Below are positions 3,112 to 40,388 of a stretch of DNA of 64,000 bases, piece after piece; position 1 is the first letter of the stretch; each line of letters begins with the position of its first letter. The position numbers were made by a program, and so were the translations under genes. Source of the stretch: an uncultured Bdellovibrionales bacterium (GTDB lineage Bacteria; Patescibacteriota; Minisyncoccia; Moranbacterales; UBA1568); NCBI GenBank assembly GCA_964597355.1, contig CAZQWS010000005.1, positions 903 through 64,902 of the forward strand. Direction: 5' to 3'. Under the pieces are notes generated by a model that searched no databases, was not told the DNA's origin, and was given only the letters and a program-made list of their open reading frames with translations.

Positions 3112-4143
3112 ATGCAGATTCCCATCGAAAATAAAAAAACAACGAAGCCAGCCGAATCTGAACTCCGTCAAGATATCGTTACTGGTGACTGGGTGATTAT
3201 CGCTACCGCTCGGGCCAAACGCCCGGATGAATTTGTGGCTGGTAAACGCGCTGAACCCGATGAAGGACTGAGTATTTTCGAACGAGCCGAAGAAACAAAA
3301 CAAGAGAAAGATGTCCTTATTTATCGTCAAGGTGATGATGAGTGGAGTCTCCGAGTGTTCCCCAATAAATACCCAGCGGTTTCTCGTGGTCGAGCAGCTC
3401 GTTCTCTTGAGGAAGGGCCGTATTTCGCCATGACGGGCGTGGGGTATCATGAACTTGTGGTTACGAAAGATCGTAAGCGTCATCTGGCGCTCCTCGAAAC
3501 CTGGCAAGTAGCGGAGGTGCTGGATGCCTATCAGGAACGTTATCTTGCCCTGATGAATAAGGCGAATATCAAGTATATTCAGGTTTTTCATAATCATGGC
3601 AAGGAGGCGGGAGCATCTGTGACTCACCCTCACTCCCAAATTATGGCTATACCAGTACTCTCTCCGTATGTGAAGAGTATCCTCGAAGGGGCAGAAGGTT
3701 TTTACAAGAGTCACCGTGAACGAGTCTATACGATGATGATAGAGTATGAGCGTGAGGTTGAAAAACGGGTTGTTTTTGAGAATGATGACTTTATAGTGTT
3801 TACCCCATTTGCTTCACGGGCAGCTTTCGAACTTTGGGTAGTCGGTAAACGTCCCAATGCATATTTTGAACGGATTACTGAGGAAGAGAAATTTACGTGT
3901 GCAGAAGCGCTCCAGAAAGCTCTGCAGGCACTCTTCTATGGACTAGAAAATCCAGCGTACAACTTCTATCTCTACACGGCGCCTGCCTCAGGAGAGGACT
4001 ACCCACACTTCCAGTGGCATATTCAAATTTTGCCTCGTACTAGTACCTGGGCTGGTTTTGAGCTTTCTACGGGAATTGAGGTTTCTACGATTCAGCCTGA
4101 GATAGCGGCTGAATACTTGCGTTCCAAACTAGCTTCCCACTAG
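3112..4143 (+). CDS. galT: galactose-1-phosphate uridylyltransferase (HIT family, GalT type)
   Basis: HIT motif 'HPHSQIMAIPV', two half-domain architecture, 'FENDDFIVFTPFASRAAFELWV' typical of GalT. Confidence 0.8.
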   Translation: MQIPIENKKTTKPAESELRQDIVTGDWVIIATARAKRPDEFVAGKRAEPDEGLSIFERAEETKQEKDVLIYRQGDDEWSLRVFPNKYPAVSRGRAARSLEEGPYFAMTGVGYHELVVTKDRKRHLALLETWQVAEVLDAYQERYLALMNKANIKYIQVFHNHGKEAGASVTHPHSQIMAIPVLSPYVKSILEGAEGFYKSHRERVYTMMIEYEREVEKRVVFENDDFIVFTPFASRAAFELWVVGKRPNAYFERITEEEKFTCAEALQKALQALFYGLENPAYNFYLYTAPASGEDYPHFQWHIQILPRTSTWAGFELSTGIEVSTIQPEIAAEYLRSKLASH

Positions 4144-11187: not shown

Positions 11188-12195
11188 TTGAGAGAGGGTT
11201 TTGTGGAAGCAAGACCCTCTCAATCATTTTTTGAAACGCTAAATTATTTTTCAAACAACAAATATATGTATGATGTAATCATCATTGGGGGAGGACCTGG
11301 AGGAGTAGCGGCTGGTGTATATACAGCCCGCAAACAAATGAAGACACTTTTTCTCACACAGGATTTTTTAAGTCAGTCGGTAGTATCAGCATCAATCGAA
11401 AACTGGATTGGTACGGTGACGGTGCCAGGCTATGAATTTGGCCAGATGCTTGAGAAGCATCTCCGCGCTCAGGAAAACATTGAGATTAAGACGGGGACGA
11501 AAGCTGCGAAAGTTTCTGAACGTGCCGAAGGTGGGTATGTGGTGGAAACAGAAGTCGGAGAAAAATTTGAAACCAAGACGGTCATCATTGCCTCTGGTGG
11601 ACGGCACCGCCATCTCGAAGTACCGGGTGAAGAAAAATTTGTTGGGAAGGGCGTGGTGTATTGTTCGACCTGTGATGCGCCATTTTTCCGTGACCGCAAA
11701 GTGGCTGTCGTGGGGAGTGGTAATTCGGCTCTTGAAGCGGTAGAAGATCTTATTCCGTACGCTAAAGAGATTGTACTCTTGGTTCGTTCTGGAGAATTAA
11801 AAGGGGACAAGGTTACTCAGGATAATATTTTTACTTCACCAAAAGTAAGCGTGCGTTATCATGTGACTACCCAATCGATTCTTGGTGAAAACAAAGTAGA
11901 GGGGATTGCGCTCATGAACACAGAGACAAATACGCCGGAAGAAATTGCTCTCGATGGTGTGTTCGTGGAAATTGGTATGCTCCCCAATACGGAATTCGTG
12001 AAGGATATAGTAGAGCTCAATGAAGGGGGAGAGATTGTGGTAGACGCACGGACTGCCAGCACCTCGAAGCCTGGTATCTTCGCGACAGGAGATGCGACAG
12101 ACCTTCCCTATAAGCAAAACAATATTTCCGCTGGCGTAGGCGTCACAGCAGCTCTCTCAGCTTATGATTTTATTCGCAAAGGCAAGGCAGAGTAG
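11188..12195 (+). CDS. trxB: thioredoxin-disulfide reductase
   Basis: FAD motif 'YDVIIIGGGPGGVAAGVY', redox-active 'CSTCDAPFF' (CxxC), NADPH motif 'VAVVGSGNSALE'. Probable true start ATG 11266 (MYDVIIIGGG); the 11188 TTG extension is doubtful. Confidence 0.85.
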   Translation: MREGFVEARPSQSFFETLNYFSNNKYMYDVIIIGGGPGGVAAGVYTARKQMKTLFLTQDFLSQSVVSASIENWIGTVTVPGYEFGQMLEKHLRAQENIEIKTGTKAAKVSERAEGGYVVETEVGEKFETKTVIIASGGRHRHLEVPGEEKFVGKGVVYCSTCDAPFFRDRKVAVVGSGNSALEAVEDLIPYAKEIVLLVRSGELKGDKVTQDNIFTSPKVSVRYHVTTQSILGENKVEGIALMNTETNTPEEIALDGVFVEIGMLPNTEFVKDIVELNEGGEIVVDARTASTSKPGIFATGDATDLPYKQNNISAGVGVTAALSAYDFIRKGKAE

Positions 12196-12211
12196 ATTAA
12201 TCGTCTTTACT

Positions 12212-12275
12212 ACTTGGAAGCCGAACTTCCAAGTAAGAATAGATGGTAAAAAGAGGTTTATCCAAGCCTCTTTCT
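12212..12275 (+). terminator. trxB downstream tandem hairpins (9-bp stem acttggaag/cttccaagt; second hairpin agagg..cctct followed by TTTCT)
   Basis: Inverted repeats read directly at 12212-12234 and 12251-12275 followed by a T-rich stretch. Confidence 0.55.
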
Positions 12276-12290
12276 CATGCCACAAATGAC

Positions 12291-12318
12291 TAGACAAAAT
12301 AGCAAAAAAGTGTATAAT
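12291..12318 (+). promoter_or_regulatory. promoter of DGR target gene 1 (-35 TAGACA, 16-nt spacer, extended -10 TGTATAAT)
   Basis: tagaca 12291-12296, tgtataat 12311-12318; homologous copies upstream of target 2 (13361-13389) and of ORF 37494 (37332-37360). Confidence 0.6.
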
Positions 12319-12470
12319 GTACTGTTCGTTAAAAATTCAGAGTTTTGCCAGAGCGAAGAGATTTTTACTTGGAGGCCGGATCCCCAAGAAGACCTCCAAG
12401 AAGGGTAGAGACTTCTTCACTCTGGCAGACTACTCGAATTTTCGAGAGGCCATGAGTAAAAGGAATTGTC
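12319..12470 (+). other. ~150-nt structured 5' leader of DGR target 1 (nested inverted repeats gccagagcgaagag.../...cttcactctggc and cttggaggcc.../gacctccaag)
   Basis: Long imperfect hairpins between the promoter and the AAGGA SD/ATG 12471; a homologous leader core (ccagagcg...cttcttc.ctctgg) occurs at 37386-37432. Confidence 0.5.
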
Positions 12471-13100
12471 ATGACACAGCGTGTCGCCGACGAAGTCATC
12501 TCACGTTTTGCACGTCAACAGCACGATTGGATGGGGCGTGTCCTCAAGGGATCGCTTGATCCAACCGAAGTGGCCCGGGTCGTGCAGGCCATTATCGATC
12601 GTGGTTTACGCTACCCACTGCTTTCGGAAAGGAAGCTCCTCAAGCCCGTCGCCACGGCGACCGCGGCCAAGGATCCGCCCTTCGTGAACGAGTTCTTCCA
12701 GAGCCGTCCCGGCCTCTACGTCTGGGACTCGTTCCGTGAACGCTTCGATCTCAAGGCATTATCCCAGTCGGTGGGCGGCCGTCCCTACGTCGCCTCTCTC
12801 TTGAAGTTGAACGCCTACGATCGTGACATTCGCCGGGAACTGCCGGAGAACAACCTCTCGGCCTTGGAAGACATCGCCGGCTTCATCGAGGCCCAGCCGA
12901 ATGGCAAGGAGGGCTTCCTTCTCACTAACGGTTACGCGAACATCTTCTACGTCGAAGGGCGTAACGGTGAAGTCTTCTCCGTGGATGTTTTCTGGTTCTC
13001 CGACCGCCGCCGGTGGAGCGTCCGCGACTGGAGGCTCGACGAGAATGGCTCGTGGAGTGCTGGCGACCAGGTTCTCTGCCCCGGCAACGCCGCACTCTGA
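12471..13100 (+). CDS. DGR target protein paralog 1 (variable C-terminal domain, VR1)
   Basis: 209 aa, ~60% GC vs ~48% background. Shares 'FQSRPGLYVWDSFRER...PYVASLLK.NAYDRDIRRELPEN.LS.LEDIAGFIEAQP.GK.GFLL.NGYAN.FYVEG.NGE' with the downstream paralog; its C-terminal ~115 nt align to the TR with mostly adenine-site differences. Confidence 0.8.
   Translation: MTQRVADEVISRFARQQHDWMGRVLKGSLDPTEVARVVQAIIDRGLRYPLLSERKLLKPVATATAAKDPPFVNEFFQSRPGLYVWDSFRERFDLKALSQSVGGRPYVASLLKLNAYDRDIRRELPENNLSALEDIAGFIEAQPNGKEGFLLTNGYANIFYVEGRNGEVFSVDVFWFSDRRRWSVRDWRLDENGSWSAGDQVLCPGNAAL
12972..13086 (+). repeat. VR1: variable repeat at the 3' end of target gene 1 (diverged from TR)
   Basis: Aligns codon-for-codon with TR 14504-14620; ~20 differences at TR adenines plus ~12 non-adenine differences. 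Confidence 0.6.
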
Positions 13101-13142
13101 CCCTTCAGTCCATTGGGCAAAGACCCTTGGATACTTAGTCCC

Positions 13143-13193
13143 TTAGACCCTTGGAAACCGCATCGCGGCTACCGGGGGTCTTTTTGTTTTGCT
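13143..13193 (+). repeat. 51-bp element ttagacccttggaaaccgcatcgcggctaccgggggtctttttgttttgct downstream of VR1 (identical copy downstream of VR2); hairpin plus T-run, candidate terminator/IMH-associated structure
   Basis: Exact 51-bp identity between 13143-13193 and 14224-14274; contains ccgc-atc-gcgg hairpin and gaccc/gggtc flanks, then TTTTTGTTTT; preceded by tandem GACCCTTGGA motifs. Confidence 0.6.
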
Positions 13194-13195
13194 CC

Positions 13196-13281
13196 CCTAC
13201 AAGCAGAACAATATTTCAGCCGGTGTAGGTGTGACCGCGGCGTTGTCAGCCTATGACTTTATCCGTAAAGGCAAAGGTTAG
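13196..13281 (+). pseudogene. duplicated 3' fragment of trxB (encodes '..PYKQNNISAGVGVTAALSAYDFIRKGKG*', no start)
   Basis: ~80% nt identity to trxB 12111-12195; followed by duplicated hairpin (13283-13303, compensatory changes preserve stem), terminator hairpin (13318-13346) and promoter. Confidence 0.8.
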
Positions 13282-13360
13282 ATTGGGAAGCCCGGCTTCC
13301 AAGTAAGAAGAGGTAGTAAAAAGAGGCTTGAGTAAGCCTCTTTTTCGTACCCCGTATGAC

Positions 13361-13389
13361 TAGACAAAAGTACCAAAAAGGTGTACAAT
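13361..13389 (+). promoter_or_regulatory. promoter of DGR target gene 2 (-35 TAGACA, 17-nt spacer, -10 TACAAT with upstream TG)
   Basis: Duplicate of the 12291-12318 promoter module. Confidence 0.55.
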
Positions 13390-13463
13390 TATAGGTTGCA
13401 GGTGAGAACTTGCTTCTGCCCCGATTCCCGGCATATGGGAATTACCTTGAAAAGGAGACTGCG

Positions 13464-14168
13464 ATGACGACTCAGTCGATCACGCAAGACCAGGAAAAGC
13501 AACTGAAGCGCTTCCTCGAAGACGCGTCCATAGCGGCGACCCGTTCGGCCCTTGCGCAGGTGTCCCTCGACAAAGAGGGCTCCCAGCAGGTCATCGAACG
13601 GGGCGACCAGCTCAAGGCCGAAATCGAACGCGCCACCGTCGCCATCCTGAAGAAGTTGAGTTCCCGCTATTCGGTCGTCGGTGAAACACGGCTCCTCAAG
13701 CCCGCCGCCGCCTCGACCGCTCGGGCCCGGACTAAGCCGTTCGACCCCTCCGAGTTCTTCCAGAACCGTCCCGGGCTTTACGTCTGGGATTCGTTCCGCG
13801 AGCGGCTCGACATCGAAAACCGCAAGCTCGTTCCGTCGGCTCCCGAACGTCCCTATGTGGCGTCCCTCCTGAAGTCGAATGCCTATGACCGAGACATCCG
13901 CCGGGAATTGCCCGAGAACCATCTCTCGACACTCGAAGACATCGCGGGCTTCATCGAAGCCCAGCCGGAAGGCAAGTCGGGGTTCCTCCTGAACAACGGC
14001 TACGCGAACAACTTCTACGTCGAAGGACACAACGGCGAAATCTTCGCCGTGCGTGTCCTCTGGTACTCGGACAACCTTGAGTGGGACGTCCGCGTTTGGT
14101 TCCTCGATGAGCGTGACTGGTGGCGCGCCGAGCGCCAGGTCGTCTGTCCCGGAAACGTGTCGCTCTGA
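13464..14168 (+). CDS. DGR target protein paralog 2 (variable C-terminal domain, VR2)
   Basis: ATG 13464 with AAGGAG SD (ORF track extends to TTG 13410); 234 aa, GC-rich, paralog of 12471-13100; last ~38 codons are the VR matching the TR. Confidence 0.85.
   Translation: MTTQSITQDQEKQLKRFLEDASIAATRSALAQVSLDKEGSQQVIERGDQLKAEIERATVAILKKLSSRYSVVGETRLLKPAAASTARARTKPFDPSEFFQNRPGLYVWDSFRERLDIENRKLVPSAPERPYVASLLKSNAYDRDIRRELPENHLSTLEDIAGFIEAQPEGKSGFLLNNGYANNFYVEGHNGEIFAVRVLWYSDNLEWDVRVWFLDERDWWRAERQVVCPGNVSL
14040..14153 (+). repeat. VR2: variable repeat at the 3' end of target gene 2
   Basis: 114-nt alignment to TR 14504-14617: 21 substitutions, every one at a TR adenine (aat>cgt, aac>ctc/tac/gac/cgc/ttc, aag>gag, gat>gtt, agg>tgg, cca>ccc), zero at C/G/T positions. 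Confidence 0.9.
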
Positions 14169-14223
14169 CGCTTCGGTCCCTTGGGTCTCTGATTTGTATT
14201 CTGACCCTTGGACCCTCAGTCTC

Positions 14224-14274
14224 TTAGACCCTTGGAAACCGCATCGCGGCTACCGGGGGTCTTTTTGTTTTGCT
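14224..14274 (+). repeat. second copy of the 51-bp post-VR hairpin/T-run element
   Basis: Identical to 13143-13193. Confidence 0.6.
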
Positions 14275-14503
14275 ACAGTAAAAGCGGTATGTTGAAAATC
14301 CCTTCCGGCTACGGCTGGCAGAGCAAGATGCTGGAATGAAAGCGGATGAGAGCCGGAGCAGATACCAACTTCTTCGGGAGAACGCTTTTGTTTCAAAAAA
14401 TATATTGCGTTGGTGTCTTGAGCTTGAGGACTTCGAGGTCCCGCATACGATACAGCTCTGAGAGTAGTCGAGGAGCAGTGGAACGGACGGCTCAAGGCAC
14501 GGA

Positions 14504-14620
14504 ATCTTCGCCGTGAATGTCAACTGGAACTCGGACAACCTTAAGTGGAACGTCAACGATTGGAACCTCGATGAGAATGACAGGTGGAACGCCAAGAACC
14601 AGGTCGTCTGTCCAGGCCAC
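14504..14620 (+). repeat. DGR template repeat (TR)
   Basis: Truncated copy of the target 3' end lacking the N-terminal gene body and start codon; encodes '...IFAVNVNWNSDNLKWNVNDWNLDENDRWNAKNQVVCPG' with 8 AAC + 2 AAT codons exactly at the positions that vary in VR1/VR2. Confidence 0.9.
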
Positions 14621-14638
14621 GCACAAAGTTTCTCTCGC

Positions 14639-14989
14639 CTATTTCGGCGGGAGTTTTGTTTCGAGGCCTTTCTTCCAACCGCCAAGCATCCGGCCTGTTT
14701 CGTTCAACTCCATTGAAAGAGTAGAATACTTCTTGTGATCAATGAGTTTATTTTCCCAACCAAGCTGAAGAAAAAACTTTATGATATCTACCTTTCCGAC
14801 GGTGGCTGTTAAATAGGCTATTTTTTGTTCTGATTTGGTATACTGAGCTCGAAAGATATACTCGAGAGCTTCAAGAAAAATTGCATCTACTTTACCGCCA
14901 AAAGTATAGCGATGGGTTTTGGGAATATGCGGAACACACTGAAGCCACAAATTATATGAAAGTTTTAACTTCTGAACCACTGGCAACAC
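14639..14989 (-). CDS. avd: DGR accessory variability determinant (Avd), four-helix-bundle / 23S rRNA-IVS protein family
   Basis: ~113-116 aa. The pattern 'PKTHRYTFGGKVDAIFLEALEYIF...KIAYLTATVGKVDIIKFFLQLGWE...ETGRMLGGWKKGLE' parallels Bordetella phage Avd ('PRKHGVAREMFLKCLLGQVELF...EVGRILGSWIARVNRK'). Likely start GTG 14980 preceded by AGGTG SD; it lies between TR and RT but on the opposite strand. Confidence 0.7.
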   Translation of the reverse strand: MLPVVQKLKLSYNLWLQCVPHIPKTHRYTFGGKVDAIFLEALEYIFRAQYTKSEQKIAYLTATVGKVDIIKFFLQLGWENKLIDHKKYSTLSMELNETGRMLGGWKKGLETKLPPK

Positions 14990-14993
14990 CTGC

Positions 14994-15002
14994 GGGGGGG
15001 GG
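14994..15002. repeat. G9/C9 homopolymeric tract between divergent avd and RT
   Basis: Nine consecutive G (14994-15002) ~5 nt upstream of the avd SD on the minus strand and inside the open N-terminal extension of the RT frame. Confidence 0.8.
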
Positions 15003-15076
15003 TATTAGAGGCATATCGAAAACGTAAAAAATTAGACATCGCTTACCATGATATCATTTCTCTCGACAACCTCCTC

Positions 15077-16048
15077 TTGGCTTGGCAATCCTTTGTGAAA
15101 GGAAAAAGACAAAAGAAAGACGTTCAGGAATTTGAACTTCATTTGATGGATAACCTGATAGATCTTCGCGAGTCGTTCAAAACCAAAACCTATACCCACG
15201 GTTCCTACCATGCCTTCAAAGTAAATGATCCAAAGCCGAGAGATATTCACAAAGCAAGGGTGAAAGATCGAGTTCTTCATCATCTTCTCTATCAAGCTCT
15301 CTCACTCTTCTTCTTCAAGCGCTTCATTCATGACTCTTATTCTTGCCAGGATGGCAAAGGCATTCACAAGGCTTTACTCAGGTTTGAAACTTTCTCAAGG
15401 AAAGTTTCCAAGAACCATACGAAACAGTGTTTTGTCTTGAAATGCGACATCCGCAAGTTTTTCGCGAGTATTGATCAGGCAATACTTCTCAAGATTCTCG
15501 AAGAGTGGATTGAAGACAAAGAGGTACTGTGGCTTCTCAAAAGAGTGATACAGAGCTTCTGGATCCCGGATCACCCGCCCGAACGTACCAGTTCGGTACG
15601 GGCGGGAGTCCGGGATGACACAAAGAGAGGATTACCCCTGGGCAATCTGACATCCCAGCTTCTGGTGAATATCTATCTGAATGAGTTTGACCAGTTTGTG
15701 AAGCATGTTCTTAAAGTACGGCATTATATCCGGTATGCCGATGACTTTGTAATCCTCTCGCACGACAAGAGTGAACTTCAAACACTACTTATCAAGCTTC
15801 AAACCTTTCTCAAGTTGAGGCTTAATCTTGACCTTCACCCGAACAAAGTCTCAATAGAGACTCTTGGAAGTGGAGTAGACTTCTTGGGTTGGGTGCATTT
15901 TCCTGATCACAGAGTATTACGAACGGTAACGAAGCGGAGGATGATGAAGAAGGTGAATCCGAAGAATATTGCTTCGTACTTGGGAATGCTTGATTGGGGA
16001 AATGGGTGGAAATTAAAACAATTGATAGAAGATTTGTTTGACTTCTAG
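15077..16048 (+). CDS. DGR reverse transcriptase
   Basis: RT motifs: 'LLAWQSFVKGKRQKKDVQEF' (DGR RT N-terminus), 'PKPRDIHKARVKDRVLHHLLY', motif 4 'LPLGNLTSQLLVNIYL' (DGR-specific [LIV]GxxxSQ) and motif 5 'RYADDFVIL' (YxDD). The frame stays open upstream to 14969 with RT-like residues ('LEAYRKRKKLDIAYHDIISLDNLLL') but no in-frame ATG/GTG; TTG 15077 is the track start. Confidence 0.9.
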   Translation: MAWQSFVKGKRQKKDVQEFELHLMDNLIDLRESFKTKTYTHGSYHAFKVNDPKPRDIHKARVKDRVLHHLLYQALSLFFFKRFIHDSYSCQDGKGIHKALLRFETFSRKVSKNHTKQCFVLKCDIRKFFASIDQAILLKILEEWIEDKEVLWLLKRVIQSFWIPDHPPERTSSVRAGVRDDTKRGLPLGNLTSQLLVNIYLNEFDQFVKHVLKVRHYIRYADDFVILSHDKSELQTLLIKLQTFLKLRLNLDLHPNKVSIETLGSGVDFLGWVHFPDHRVLRTVTKRRMMKKVNPKNIASYLGMLDWGNGWKLKQLIEDLFDF

Positions 16049-16082
16049 GTAAAAAGCTGCTATACTGGTAGAGTAAATGAAG

Positions 16083-16110
16083 AAACGGGTGAATGCCCGT
16101 TTTCTTTTTT
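16083..16110 (+). terminator. rho-independent terminator after RT (aaacggg-tgaatg-cccgttt + TTTCTTTTTT)
   Basis: 7-bp GC-containing stem and T-run read directly. Confidence 0.7.
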
Positions 16111-16136
16111 ACAAGAGGAAATCCTCTTACAAATAC

Positions 16137-16195
16137 ACCACCACACCAATAGTGCCTTGAGTAAAGAGTATTTAGGGCTTTATTGGTGTGGTGGT
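16137..16195. other. perfect 15-bp stem-loop (accaccacaccaata ... tattggtgtggtggt, 29-nt loop) within a ~250-bp structured intergenic region
   Basis: Exact reverse complement arms; followed by further hairpins (ggcgaaagcc, ctggga..tcccag, gccgctt..aagcggc) up to 16330; no recognised ncRNA family motif. Confidence 0.4.
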
Positions 16196-16395
16196 ACATA
16201 GTAGTTAAAAGGCGAAAGCCTCCTATTCTGGGACAGGGTTCCCTCTCCCAGCGAGCAGTGCCAATTAAACGGTCCTGCCGCCACCAACAGTCTGCCGCTT
16301 CGGTCCATTGTGATCTAAGCGGCTTTGAATTTCCCCCTTGTCTTAGGTAATTTTTCAGCTTGAAAAAGAGGGTGTTTTGGGCTATACTCCCCCTT

Positions 16396-17667
16396 ATGGA
16401 AGTATTTGAAATTGAGGGCGGAAAACGCCTTGCTGGTACCATTGCCGTAGCTGGACTAAAGAATGCCGCTACGCCGATTATCGCGGCGACTTTATTGTCA
16501 CGTGAACCATCAATTTTGGAAAACATCCCTCGGATTGAGGATGTGTTTCGCATGCTTGAAATCGTGGAGAGTCTCGGAGCGACCGTAGAATGGGTAGGTG
16601 GGCAGACAGTAAAGATCACCCCGACGGATATTGACCCGAGTCACATGGATCAGGAAAAGGTAAAACGCCTGCGTTCCTCGATTCTCCTCTTGGGGGCACT
16701 CTCTGCCCAATTTGATAATTTTGAACTCTGTCAACCTGGTGGCTGTGTTATCGGTACTCGACCAGTAGAAGCGCACCTTGATGCCTTGATGAAGTTTGGG
16801 GTGAAAGTGGAACAAAAAGAAAAAGGCTATGTGATCGATGCGAGCGAACGACATGCAGCCAAAGTTGTTCTTCGTCAAATGTCAGTAACCGCCACCGAGA
16901 ATGCGATGCTGCTGGCAGCACGCTTGCCAGGTGATACCATGATCAAGATTGCCGCTTGTGAACCGCATGTGGTTGATCTGGGCCGTTTCCTGGAAAAAAT
17001 GGGAGTGGAGATTGATGGACTGGGTACGCATACGCTTACCATTCGTGGGAAGAAAGAGCTGCATGGAGCAACGCATGCGATCATGCCTGACCACAATGAA
17101 GCGGCGACCTACCTTATTTTGGGAGCAGCTACAGAGAGTGAGATTACGGTAGAAAACGCCCGTGAAGATGATCTTGATCTCGTACTAGAAAAACTCCGTG
17201 AGCTTGGTGTCTCGTTCACGATTACCCCTAATGCTATTACTATTCATCCAACCGATCACCTCAATGCCCCATCGCTCTTCATCGACCCACGTCCGTATCC
17301 AGGTATCCCAACTGATATCCAGGCACCCCTTGCTGTGCTTGCAACCCAAGCCGAAGGAGAAACACTTATTTTTGATACGCTTTACGAAGGCCGTTTTAAT
17401 TACGCTGTGGAATTAGAAAAAATGGGAGCAAAGCTTTCTGTGCTCAATCCTCATCAGGTGGTGGTGCATGGCAAGACACTTTTGCGTGGTACGGTGATCA
17501 AAAGTTATGACCTGCGTGCTGGGGCAGCCCTCATCATTGCTGCGCTGACTGCTCAAGGGAAAACAGTGATCGAAGATATCTATCAAGTAGACCGTGGCTA
17601 TGAGCGAATCGAAGAACGACTGCAGAAGATTGGCGCAAATATCAAAAGAGTAGGGCGCGGGGAATAG
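16396..17667 (+). CDS. murA: UDP-N-acetylglucosamine 1-carboxyvinyltransferase
   Basis: 'MEVFEIEGGKRLAGTIAVAGLKNAATPIIAATLL' and EPSP-synthase-like fold motifs ('PGGCVIGTRPV', 'YDLRAGAALIIAAL'). ATG 16396 preferred over TTG 16360. Confidence 0.85.
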   Translation: MEVFEIEGGKRLAGTIAVAGLKNAATPIIAATLLSREPSILENIPRIEDVFRMLEIVESLGATVEWVGGQTVKITPTDIDPSHMDQEKVKRLRSSILLLGALSAQFDNFELCQPGGCVIGTRPVEAHLDALMKFGVKVEQKEKGYVIDASERHAAKVVLRQMSVTATENAMLLAARLPGDTMIKIAACEPHVVDLGRFLEKMGVEIDGLGTHTLTIRGKKELHGATHAIMPDHNEAATYLILGAATESEITVENAREDDLDLVLEKLRELGVSFTITPNAITIHPTDHLNAPSLFIDPRPYPGIPTDIQAPLAVLATQAEGETLIFDTLYEGRFNYAVELEKMGAKLSVLNPHQVVVHGKTLLRGTVIKSYDLRAGAALIIAALTAQGKTVIEDIYQVDRGYERIEERLQKIGANIKRVGRGE

Positions 17668-38018: not shown

Positions 38019-40388
38019 TTAGGGCAATTGAAAGGAGAAAGTACCGCTGGGGCGAGCGATGAGGAGTTCGTTGTTTCTGGTTACGTTGATAGTCCTTGCA
38101 TCACTGAGCGAATTATGAAAGTACTGGGCGATGAGGGTGCCGGTAGAAGACCAGCGTACAATCCGTTTTTCTTTGGGATCGAGAGCATAGACATCACCAT
38201 TTTTTGGATCGATGGTAAGAGCTTTGGTTTCGAGGGGTGTTTGGGTTCCGGCGAACGCAGCTTCAGTTTTACGACCGCTGCTATAGAGGGCTGGGTGACC
38301 GTCTGGGAGTACGATAGCTACATTTTCAAAGATGGACAAGGGTGAAATGGGGTGGATAGTGAGCGTTTCTTTGGACCATCGTGTGGGAGCGCCAAAACCT
38401 CCTTCGACTCGAGGGAAACGATAGAGAGTGCCAGCTTTGCGATCGAGTACATAGAGATAGGTGAGATAGGTTCCAAGAGCATCAATCTGAGTATTGCCCG
38501 GAAGAGGGAGAGTATTTTGCTCAAACTTTTTGTTAGCGACGGTAAAAATATACAGTGTTCCGGATTGACCGAGGAGGAACAGTGCATCGAGGTCATCCAT
38601 GGCAGTAGCTAAACGAATAGGTTCAGGTAGAGCAGTAGACTCGCTAGTTTTTAGGTTAACGATACGCTCGCTACGGATATCGAAAGGAGTATTATTGATA
38701 AGACTGAGTGCGATAGGTTCGCCATTGAAAGAAGAGATCACACGGCTTTCACTGAGACGGACTGCGAGTGGTTCATTTTCTGATGTAATTGATGAAGGTG
38801 TGAGAGGCGCAACAGTATCGGATAGCGAAGGAACTACTACTGCTGGTTGCTCCCAGACGGGAGAGCGGTTGAGGTAGAACCATGTTCCGAGGCCAATGGT
38901 GACAAGAACTACGCCACTACCAGCCATGATCTGCCGGGTGCGTTTGCTTTGATCTTGCCAGAATATGAGACTGCGTTGCCAGGCGGCTTGGATATATCGG
39001 AGAGTACTATGGTTCACTTGAATGAGTACCTGCTTAGTTTGACCTATCCAGGCAACGAACGTATCGAAGGGAAAAGAGATCGATGGTTTTGGTAGTCGGG
39101 GCAGGGTAACTTTTTTCCAATTGTCTTTTAGGTTTTCTTTGAGAGAAAAGGAAGGGAGTGACGAAGCAGAAGTAGTTGTAGTAGCTTCGGTTGGAGGGAC
39201 TGGAAGAGTGATTGCTGATGATTTTCTAGTCTCACGAATTTTGCGTATATGGCGGAGGGAGGAACGGATGCGGCGCAGTCCCTTGCGTCCGGAACTAGCC
39301 ATCTGGTCTTCAACACCGCTTATGAAAAAAGCAATGTTTTTGCGACTTCGGCGACCAAAACGACGAAGCTTTTCGCGACTAAGTTGCCATGATTGTGAAA
39401 GTGAGTGAGACCAAAGAGTCAGTCGAGTTTTCCATGGCTCCTCCTCTTGTTCAGCTTCTTCTTCTCCATGGACATAAATATGGCCAGTTTTTTTGTCGAT
39501 GTATTCTTGCTGGTGTTCTTTTGGGGGGGTAGTCGGTGGGGGGGATGTAAAAGCCTTGAGGCGGGATGATCGAGCTTTTTCAAATGTCTGGCCACTCCAT
39601 ACATTGAGAAGTTTAGTGGCTTCTGTTTCTTCTCCCAAAGCCTCCTTTGTCTGTTTGGGAGTTGGGGTGGTTATCGGGGCAGCTGAGACGTTGATTACCA
39701 CGGCTCCAGCGATGGGGAGCTCGTTTATGAGGGCAGTATGGAGAAACTGTTCAAAGCCTTTCTGACCAAGCCGGGCTAAATTTTTCTTAAGGTCTTCTGG
39801 GGTAAAGAGAGTCCAGACGGCAGGGGAGAGAGCGAGGAGTACGTCGCTTTCAATGAGCTTACCACTCGAGACCTCGGTGAAGGTTTTGAGAGGGTGGGGT
39901 TCAGTTGAGACTTCCGCCAATCCATCACTAATAGGCCGCAAGGTCTGCTCGCGAACGAGAGCCAGTACCCCATCGCCAGTTGCCGAGAAATGAACGGTGT
40001 TATCAGCAATAGCGCCCAAGATTCCATGCAGGTGTCCAAGCCACGAAACATTGCCTTCCTTGGCAATTTCAGCGAGAGCAACATTGACTTTGTGGAGAGT
40101 GGTTTCGAAACTATCACTTACCTCTCTCCGCGGGTTGGTGAAGTATTCTTTTTTAGCGACGGAGGCAAGAAAGTTAACAATGTAGGCCGCGTCTTCGTCG
40201 TGTATCTCCACTTCAAAGAAGCCAAAAAGCGTACCAAGCGGTTTGCCAGCGACATTGTCACTTTTGTAGTGGAAAGCAATGATATAAGGTTCGGCATGCC
40301 GCCCTGACCCAACCGCAATAGCATTGAAAACACACTGAACGGAGGATGGCGATTTCCCTTCCTTCCGGCGTGAGACTCGTTCTTTCAT
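38019..40388 (-). CDS. hypothetical membrane protein, 789 aa (cytoplasmic N-terminal domain with weak PP2C-like features, single TM, large extracytoplasmic C-terminal domain)
   Basis: TM 'IMAGSGVVLVTIGLGTWFYL'; N-terminal 'IAVGSGRHAE...VHFSATGDGVL' faintly PPM-like; C-terminal beta-rich repeats. Confidence 0.5.
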   Translation of the reverse strand: MKERVSRRKEGKSPSSVQCVFNAIAVGSGRHAEPYIIAFHYKSDNVAGKPLGTLFGFFEVEIHDEDAAYIVNFLASVAKKEYFTNPRREVSDSFETTLHKVNVALAEIAKEGNVSWLGHLHGILGAIADNTVHFSATGDGVLALVREQTLRPISDGLAEVSTEPHPLKTFTEVSSGKLIESDVLLALSPAVWTLFTPEDLKKNLARLGQKGFEQFLHTALINELPIAGAVVINVSAAPITTPTPKQTKEALGEETEATKLLNVWSGQTFEKARSSRLKAFTSPPPTTPPKEHQQEYIDKKTGHIYVHGEEEAEQEEEPWKTRLTLWSHSLSQSWQLSREKLRRFGRRSRKNIAFFISGVEDQMASSGRKGLRRIRSSLRHIRKIRETRKSSAITLPVPPTEATTTTSASSLPSFSLKENLKDNWKKVTLPRLPKPSISFPFDTFVAWIGQTKQVLIQVNHSTLRYIQAAWQRSLIFWQDQSKRTRQIMAGSGVVLVTIGLGTWFYLNRSPVWEQPAVVVPSLSDTVAPLTPSSITSENEPLAVRLSESRVISSFNGEPIALSLINNTPFDIRSERIVNLKTSESTALPEPIRLATAMDDLDALFLLGQSGTLYIFTVANKKFEQNTLPLPGNTQIDALGTYLTYLYVLDRKAGTLYRFPRVEGGFGAPTRWSKETLTIHPISPLSIFENVAIVLPDGHPALYSSGRKTEAAFAGTQTPLETKALTIDPKNGDVYALDPKEKRIVRWSSTGTLIAQYFHNSLSDARTINVTRNNELLIARPSGTFSFQLP

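Follow-up and report, generated by a model that had tools for sequence, protein, structure and literature searches.

No known system for targeted protein diversification is more powerful than the diversity-generating retroelement (DGR), and DGRs are very common in bacteria of the candidate phyla radiation (CPR); to our knowledge, little has been established about how their activity is controlled. We analysed the DGR in a 64,000 nt stretch, here called the window, from an uncultured bacterium that GTDB places in the Moranbacterales (Patescibacteriota; GenBank assembly GCA_964597355.1, contig CAZQWS010000005.1, positions 903 to 64,902). The conserved N-terminus of its reverse transcriptase (RT) has no canonical start codon, as a preliminary description made from the sequence alone had pointed out, and the open frame runs back into a tract of nine G residues that separates RT from the divergent accessory gene avd. 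The architecture of this element is already known; the missing RT start points to what is apparently an undescribed conserved feature of CPR DGRs, a short-unit repeat at the junction of avd and RT whose length may govern the translation of both genes.

Known systems and the window locus

Two described systems are closest to this locus. CPR cassettes of architecture B3, 'TR-(avd)-RT' (template repeat, reverse-strand avd, RT), made up 90% of the CPR set of Wu et al. 2018, and cassettes of this type require at least two transcription units (PMC5758913). The window locus shares with them its order and orientation (targets, TR, reverse avd, RT) and its host group, its close relatives all being Patescibacteria MAGs (metagenome-assembled genomes). 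The other is the DGR of Bordetella phage BPP-1 (bRT, bAvd; 8ub7-8ube), whose RT is the best solved relative of ours and which likewise has an Avd-family protein and adenine-specific differences between TR and variable repeat (VR). BPP-1 is colinear (target-avd-TR-RT), with a TR RNA running into the spacer up to brt, whereas in the window avd is reversed, a terminator-like hairpin comes immediately after TR, and a repeat borders the N-terminus of RT.

The locus at 12.4-16.1 kb is a complete DGR of the ordinary CPR type, with the following parts.

12471..13100, plus strand: DGR target gene 1, 209 aa, with C-terminal VR1 at 12968-13089 (repeat family D2)
13464..14168, plus strand: DGR target gene 2, from ATG 13464 (reading frame open from TTG 13410), with VR2 at 14036-14157
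14500..14621, plus strand: TR, from the repeat comparison with VR1 and VR2
14632..14663, plus strand: terminator-like hairpin and T-run that would end the TR transcript, overlapping the avd stop codon on the other strand
14639..14989, minus strand: avd, 116 aa, with a GTG start 4 nt beyond the C9 tract (Pfam bAvd)
14994..15002, no strand assigned: simple-sequence repeat, G9/C9, flanked by the divergent starts of avd and RT
15002..16048, plus strand: DGR RT coding region (Pfam RVT_1, E=3e-24), frame open from 14969

The two target genes are paralogues, each ending in a variable repeat. TR shares 80% identity with VR2 and 69% with VR1, and 21 of the 24 TR/VR2 mismatches fall at TR adenines, so that the pair shows the adenine bias, with the VR at the 3′ end of a target gene, by which DGRs are recognised. 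VR1 differs from TR at 21 A positions and at 18 non-A positions, and because of the latter we take VR1 to be older or decaying. The avd reading frame identifies an Avd protein by its match to Pfam bAvd (E=5e-14, 53 bits, cut-off 40), with a score slightly under the cut-off for NCBIfam DivGenRetAVD (E=2e-20, 73.1 bits, cut-off 80). Among solved structures the RT is closest to Bordetella bRT (8ub7, E=2.5e-38), followed at a wide distance by group II intron and retron-type RTs at 1.5e-14 or weaker. This match, the RVT_1 match and the LGNLTSQ and YADD motifs in its translation place it in the DGR clade.

TR, a reverse-strand avd and RT, with no further accessory gene, make this a B3 cassette. The preliminary description had correctly placed avd on the minus strand, opposite to TR and RT; its view of the divergent avd as a departure from the canonical DGR does not stand, B3 being the norm for the lineage. 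We compared 80 related loci from GTDB species-representative genomes, all of them metagenome-assembled genomes (MAGs) and mostly labelled Patescibacteria/CPR, and 80 further related loci from metagenomes. Wherever enough upstream DNA was present, the gene immediately upstream of RT was an avd that ran in the opposite direction (72/72 and 73/73 loci in the two samples).

Only 17 nt separate the 3′ end of TR from the avd stop codon (CTA on the plus strand, 14639-14641). Of 73 relatives, 69 have a terminator-like hairpin with a T-run after TR on the strand of TR, and 6 have one on the avd strand. Because of this conserved hairpin directly after TR, the TR RNA is probably a short transcript of its own that is not co-transcribed with RT. 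avd has no terminator of its own before running antisense into TR. A sigma-70 promoter scan of 14150-15250 gave a single plus-strand match (14835-14862), which is at chance level and is unused as evidence, and an Rfam search of 12000-16500 at E<=1 gave no match.

The missing RT start

The RT frame is open after the TAA at 14966-14968, that is from 14969, and reads LLNHWQHLRGGVLEAYRKRKKLDIAYHDIISLDNLLLAWQSFVKGKR. Its earliest in-frame ATG, GTG or TTG is TTG 15077. The preliminary description was thus right that the frame continues upstream of this codon with RT-like residues and with no in-frame ATG or GTG, and that the ATG at 15048 is out of frame. The deposited start is ATG 15146 (P0001, 300 aa). 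The stretch DIISLDNLLLAWQSFVKGKR aligns to residues 11-30 of bRT (8ub7), and starts at TTG 15077 or ATG 15146 therefore truncate a conserved N-terminus. RT homologues do not start at the equivalent of TTG 15077, their N-termini lying 12-25 codons further upstream. The missing start is a real anomaly of this gene, whose 347-codon frame is otherwise intact, catalytic motifs included.

The G9 tract at 14994-15002, which the preliminary description overlooked, is the sole G or C run of at least nine in the window. It lies 4 nt from the avd GTG at 14989 on one side and abuts the conserved RT peptide on the other. The sole other G or C runs of at least seven in the window are two G7 runs 8 nt apart (39523-39529 and 39538-39544; C7 on the coding strand), both inside a 789-aa minus-strand open reading frame (ORF; 38019-40388) where they encode ...SPPPTTPPK..., a possible second slippage-prone site. 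Four codons around the tract bear on the start; the relatives named L081, L082 and L117 are the three closest.

14956..14958, plus strand: upstream ATG, antisense to avd codons, one base off the RT frame at G9 and in frame at G8
14990..14992, plus strand: near-cognate CTG in the RT frame, directly before the tract; TTG in L082, CTG in L081 and L117
15002..15004, plus strand: GTA codon made of the last tract G and the next two bases; L081 and L082 have a called GTG start here, L117 has GCG
15012..15014, minus strand: far-side avd ATG (CAT on the plus strand), one base off the avd frame at C9 and in frame at C8

At G9, the state of the window, avd can start at GTG 14989 and RT is without an in-frame canonical start; the sole ATG whose frame enters the tract, 14956, is off by one base. 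At G8, ATG 14956 would join RT and ATG 15014 would join avd. The RT product would then begin MKVLTSEPLATPAGGVLEAYRKRKKL..., that is MKVLTSEPLATPAGG-VLEAYRKRKKL..., and the avd product from the far-side ATG 15014 would begin MPLIPPPQVLPVVQKLK... / MPLIPPPQVLPVVQ....

A sequencing or assembly error, with a true tract of G8 (or G11) and an RT starting at ATG 14956, would dispose of the anomaly. Long G runs are error-prone on some sequencing platforms, a contraction by a single base yields the in-frame ATG, and a tract one base shorter is also what most often restores ATG starts across the related loci. We nevertheless judge an error very improbable. The Logan assembly of SRR11524805 has the same G9-TATTAG, as a separate assembly although from the same reads; G9 and the frame offset recur in L081, L082 and L117, whose sequences derive from other samples; out-of-frame states recur across metagenomes in other species (L018/L147, L151/L153, L175/L176); and loci with (GA)n in place of G, which are not prone to homopolymer errors, show the same out-of-frame states. 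We separately rejected the idea that poly-G is an artefact of two-colour sequencing chemistry, as the tract is internal, orthologous and present in MAGs of many independent studies, including groundwater MAGs of 2015-2016. The preliminary description had offered three explanations for the missing start. An assembly indel finds no support, the second assembly and the relatives all having G9; a non-canonical start is possible and is weighed below; recoding, and with it slippage, is favoured by the comparative data and would act at the poly-G tract.

A repeat at the avd/RT junction across the family

Runs of at least seven G or C are concentrated at this junction. In 615 kb of related loci, 64 such runs lie within 160 nt upstream of RT and seven elsewhere, two of the seven also adjoining an avd start. 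Tract lengths range from 7 to 13 with a mode of 9-10. Twelve GTDB loci have no G tract: seven have (GA)n at the same site, two (CT)n and one a heptamer in about nine copies, while the two that are free of repeats (L063 and L065) have clean ATG starts for both avd and RT. The heptamer locus, L008, has about nine tandem GATTGCT units between avd and RT (~3890-3990) in place of poly-G, and the (CT)n of L019 and L046 is on the RT strand, the reverse of the orientation in the (GA)n loci. The metagenome sample has 62 G tracts and seven (GA)n repeats among 73 loci.

Nearly all junction repeats are homopurine on one strand, and the units, of 1, 2 or 7 nt, are in no case a multiple of three. A repeat whose unit is not divisible by three and which lies in or beside a 5′ coding end is one mark of a contingency locus, and the junction repeat has both properties.

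This repeat is a conserved feature of CPR DGRs and is apparently undescribed. The text of PMC5758913 has no 'homopolymer', 'start codon' or 'promoter' and does not describe the junction repeat, the missing starts or the terminator after TR. In the searchable literature we found no mention of the junction repeat; Paul et al. 2017, the main paper on CPR DGRs, is outside that search, so a prior description is possible.

Reading-frame statistics

Frame statistics, which are not corrected for shared ancestry, were taken over 96 non-redundant G-tract loci (from L001-L198), the window included. RT has an ATG downstream of the tract in 55 loci and only a GTG or TTG there in nine; in 18 the canonical start is only upstream, in frame through the tract, and 14 loci, the window among them, have none. 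An upstream ATG ORF enters the tract exactly one base off frame in 12 of the 14 startless RT loci, compared with 13 of the 55 that have an ATG downstream (Fisher P=3e-5). For avd, the tract is never followed by an ATG (0/96). A GTG or TTG follows it in 50 loci, 17 have only a far-side start and 29 have none; these GTG and TTG codons are mostly the Leu codon of a conserved Leu-Pro motif, which is TTA, CTG, CTA or CTT in other loci.

One relative phase of avd and RT across the tract accounts for 54 of the 96 loci, as against 33.8 +/- 4.5 when tract lengths are permuted, and 54 was reached in 0 of 20,000 permutations. Tract length modulo three therefore compensates for flank length. Shortening the tract by one base (n-1) gives ATG-initiated ORFs for both genes in 55/96 loci, while 25 have them at the length found (n) and 22 at n+1. 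These counts, like the anatomy of the locus and the conservation of the repeat, are direct observations.

The favoured relative phase sets the third codon positions of the two genes opposite each other. We saw no association between the relative phase and the presence of a GTG or TTG start for avd after the tract. The proposal that the avd frame is preferentially open upstream of the C tract was rejected, the most open frame there being offset by one base.

The commonest RT layout consists of the tract, TAnnnT, 7 nt and an ATG, and resembles a leaderless promoter. The tract could accordingly be a DNA or promoter element, a promoter spacer or non-B DNA that tunes transcription, with the missing RT start in the window incidental. 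Of 17 loci with a 13-nt spacing, about 14 have this arrangement (counted by eye), and L105 has it too; TAnnnT-7 nt-ATG is found at other window genes, for example as TATAAT-aacgtcc-ATG; and the homopurine character of the repeats would suit such a role. A promoter function leaves unexplained, however, the covariation of tract and flank length modulo three, the absence of any avd ATG after the tract, the way in which avd and RT go in or out of frame together in the (GA)n loci, and the fact that no repeat unit is a multiple of three. The sub-clade of the window has neither the TAnnnT consensus nor the ATG, and the promoter scan of this region was at chance level. We therefore regard a pure promoter or DNA-structure role as quite unlikely. 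Poly-G as a Shine-Dalgarno element was also rejected, since the ATG usually lies too far away (13 nt) and Shine-Dalgarno sequences are little used in this genome.

TAnnnT stands 6-9 nt before the ATG in five of 43 window genes (ORFs of at least 180 aa). Leaderless examples are TATAAT-aacgtcc-ATG at the 38019-40388 ORF on the minus strand and TATACT-ccccctt-ATG at 16396. Together with the scarcity of Shine-Dalgarno-like motifs, given below, this suggests that leaderless or Shine-Dalgarno-independent initiation is frequent in this organism.

Candidate RT starts in the closest relatives

L081, L082 and L117 all have G9 in the same frame relation as the window and form with it a sub-clade that has lost the ATG of the commonest layout; the RT frame of all four reaches the tract and stays open across it. 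L083 and L116 follow the commonest layout (G8-9, TAnnnT, 7 nt, ATG). The window and L117 share a conserved peptide just beyond the tract, LxAYRKRK+L, which is therefore very likely translated, from at or before the tract. Judged by these alignments, neither the GTG at the end of the tract nor the in-frame (C/T)TG before it is conserved as a start in the sub-clade.

RT might be initiated at the near-cognate CTG 14990 (L/M-R-G-G-V-L-E-A-Y...) at a low level, and the length of the tract would then be irrelevant. All four members of the sub-clade have (C/T)TG-C-G9 in frame, as a canonical TTG in L082; translation beginning at or before the tract, as the conserved peptide indicates, would fit this codon; and Shine-Dalgarno-like motifs are rare here (7 of 43 window genes), so that initiation rules may be unusual. 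CTG is nevertheless a poor initiator in the bacteria studied so far. NTG codons in the 12 nt before the tract show no preference for a frame in the 96 loci (35, 35 and 30 in the three frames), hence the NTGC looks like a nucleotide-level feature and not a start, and on these counts we rejected an NTG beside the tract as a conserved RT start. The startless loci L017, L029 and L034 moreover have no in-frame near-cognate codon either. Initiation at CTG 14990 is in our view unlikely.

The start may alternatively have been lost, the sub-clade GTG made of the last tract G and TG having become GTA by a G-to-A change at 15004, so that the window would carry a null or weak RT allele of a decaying DGR. 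L081 and L082 read G9-TG-TTT-GAG/GCG-GCA-TAT where the window reads G9-TA-TTA-GAG-GCA-TAT, decaying members of the family exist (the RT of L078 has an internal stop), and VR1 has its 18 non-A mismatches to TR. L117, the relative most similar to the window at this point, has GCG and still retains the downstream peptide, hence the GTG is not a conserved start. The intact RT frame with its catalytic motifs speaks against decay, as does the concentration of VR2 mismatches at adenines (21/24), which argues for recent activity. Fourteen of the 96 loci are startless with a biased frame relation, and independent decay would not yield such a bias. We consider a lost start improbable as well.

(GA)n loci and variation in tract length

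In the (GA)n loci, avd and RT each have an ATG on the far side of the repeat, and the two genes share their phase in all ten clear cases: four are in frame and three fall in each of the out-of-frame phases. Where the phase is in frame, both genes read cleanly across the repeat into conserved residues, RT as M...(Arg-Glu)n...HxxYxxIIS and Avd as M...(Leu-Ser)n...ILQRxKEGYLxW, the two ORFs overlapping head to head by 102-114 nt. This group is the clearest case; on the evidence of these frames, it looks as an on/off repeat switch for both genes would.

Contigs with nearly identical flanks differ in tract length in three of 16 clusters: G9 in L032 versus G10 in L166, G12 in L021 versus G11 in L149 and L160, and a (GA)n repeat of 29 versus 27 nt. 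Tract variants among contigs with identical RT were sought and not found: all 20 Moranbacteria contigs have G10, their differing protein lengths being choices of the gene caller, and two further populations are likewise invariant. In L078 the RT frame is interrupted by a stop (SFS*KPDTGLPLGN) some 30 codons ahead of GLPLGN; this locus has G10, whereas L049, almost the same in sequence, has G9 and an upstream ATG in frame. Some members of the family are probably decaying.

Proposed mechanism

We propose that the locus is organised in three units: two targets with C-terminal VRs, a short TR transcript that would be ended by an intrinsic terminator, and a divergent avd/RT pair meeting at the repeat. 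Since the repeat sits within or right beside the 5′ coding ends of avd and RT, its length sets which starts are in frame. The consensus genome most likely carries RT in a translational state that is 'off' or low, and a productive RT would need the loss of one G. Possible routes are slipped replication in a sub-population (phase variation), slippage during transcription, and a +1 shift of the ribosome on the GGG codons.

For the G-tract loci, the n-1 bias and the stable consensus lengths make us lean towards a programmed shift; for the other loci, the evenly distributed phases and the repeat units of two or seven nucleotides make us lean towards phase variation at the DNA level. That tract length gates the translation of RT and avd in the window is our preferred reading of the sequence data, held tentatively and at slightly less than even odds. 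Somewhat less firmly, we suggest that DGR activity in CPR bacteria may be gated by a hypermutable repeat in the antisense-overlapping 5′ ends of avd and RT, so that hypermutation would be on in a fraction of cells, with the window in an RT-'off' state one G away from 'on'. That switching happens, and at what level, we infer.

Several observations weigh against gating by tract length. Where RT has its ATG downstream of the tract (55/96), tract length cannot shift the RT frame, and any frame effect there would fall on avd. In 50 of the 96 loci, the window included, a GTG or TTG for avd stands beyond the tract. The far-side ATGs arise in part simply because the other strand encodes conserved residues there (His of RT; Ser/Thr-Tyr of avd). 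The commonest G-tract state is 'one base too long' and not a mixture of on and off, which suits a programmed shift better than random phase variation; yet the G-tract loci have no prfB-like stop behind the tract, stops in the incoming frame showing no enrichment in the 12 nt that follow it. Consensus tract length does not vary within the three populations sampled in greatest depth (20, 8 and 4 contigs), minority variants being invisible at that level. The lack of a correction for shared ancestry in the frame statistics belongs here too.

The locus has points of likeness to contingency loci, such as the poly-G of Campylobacter and Neisseria genes and the repeats in the shared promoter of Haemophilus hifA/hifB. 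These likewise have a hypermutable repeat, with a unit not divisible by three, at the 5′ end of a gene, varied repeat types at one position in homologues, natural in-frame and out-of-frame alleles, and one repeat serving a divergent pair. In contrast to those loci, the repeat of the window would be placed inside the overlapping, antisense 5′ coding ends of two genes at once and would act on a mutagenic retroelement instead of a surface structure. Three well-sampled populations are invariant here.

Programmed +1 frameshifting and transcriptional slippage (prfB, dnaX, insertion sequence elements) offer the other comparison. As in those systems, RT is one base off an upstream ATG ORF at a slippery GGG/CCC run, the offset has a direction, and n-1 restores the frame. 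Unlike prfB-type shifts, the tract has a slippery run and no conserved stop or rare, slow codon after it, and we identified no known stimulatory element. The dinucleotide and heptamer repeats of the sister loci are hard to square with a shift on the ribosome.

Other features of the DGR

One further feature lies within RT.

15563..15616, plus strand: G+C-rich palindromic in-frame insertion, about 16-21 extra residues (IPDHPPERTSSVRAGVRDD)

This insertion is a near-perfect palindrome (DNA fold -22.1 kcal/mol, z=-4.5), and 63 aa separate the KCD motif from GLPLGN in the window, versus 42-48 aa in most relatives. At the same site several relatives have different inserts, some coding similar peptides (IPGHPP...RDD), and the insertion resembles a small palindromic insertion element tolerated in a surface loop.

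The target genes have a G+C content of 60-61% (61% in gene 2), avd and RT 40-43% and the whole window 47%. Both targets have a Shine-Dalgarno-like GGAG, which most window genes are without. A Pfam search with target gene 1 (12471-13100) gave no match. The region arose as a tandem duplication comprising the target gene, ~80 nt of the 3′ end of an upstream thioredoxin-reductase-like gene (11188-12195) and the terminator region (12103-12310 versus 13192-13380 and 12471-13100 versus 13410-14168; families D1-D7, spacing ~1070 nt). A pseudo 3′ fragment of the thioredoxin-reductase-like gene thus sits between targets 1 and 2.

Significance

As now annotated, this RT (start at 15077 or 15146) has a wrong 5′ end, and so do many avd and RT genes of related loci. 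Gating by the junction repeat, if true, would explain many of the truncated or odd start annotations in CPR DGR genes. The idea can be tested with existing read pile-ups and metatranscriptomes. If it holds, CPR bacteria would have stochastic switching, by phase variation or slippage, layered over targeted hypermutation.

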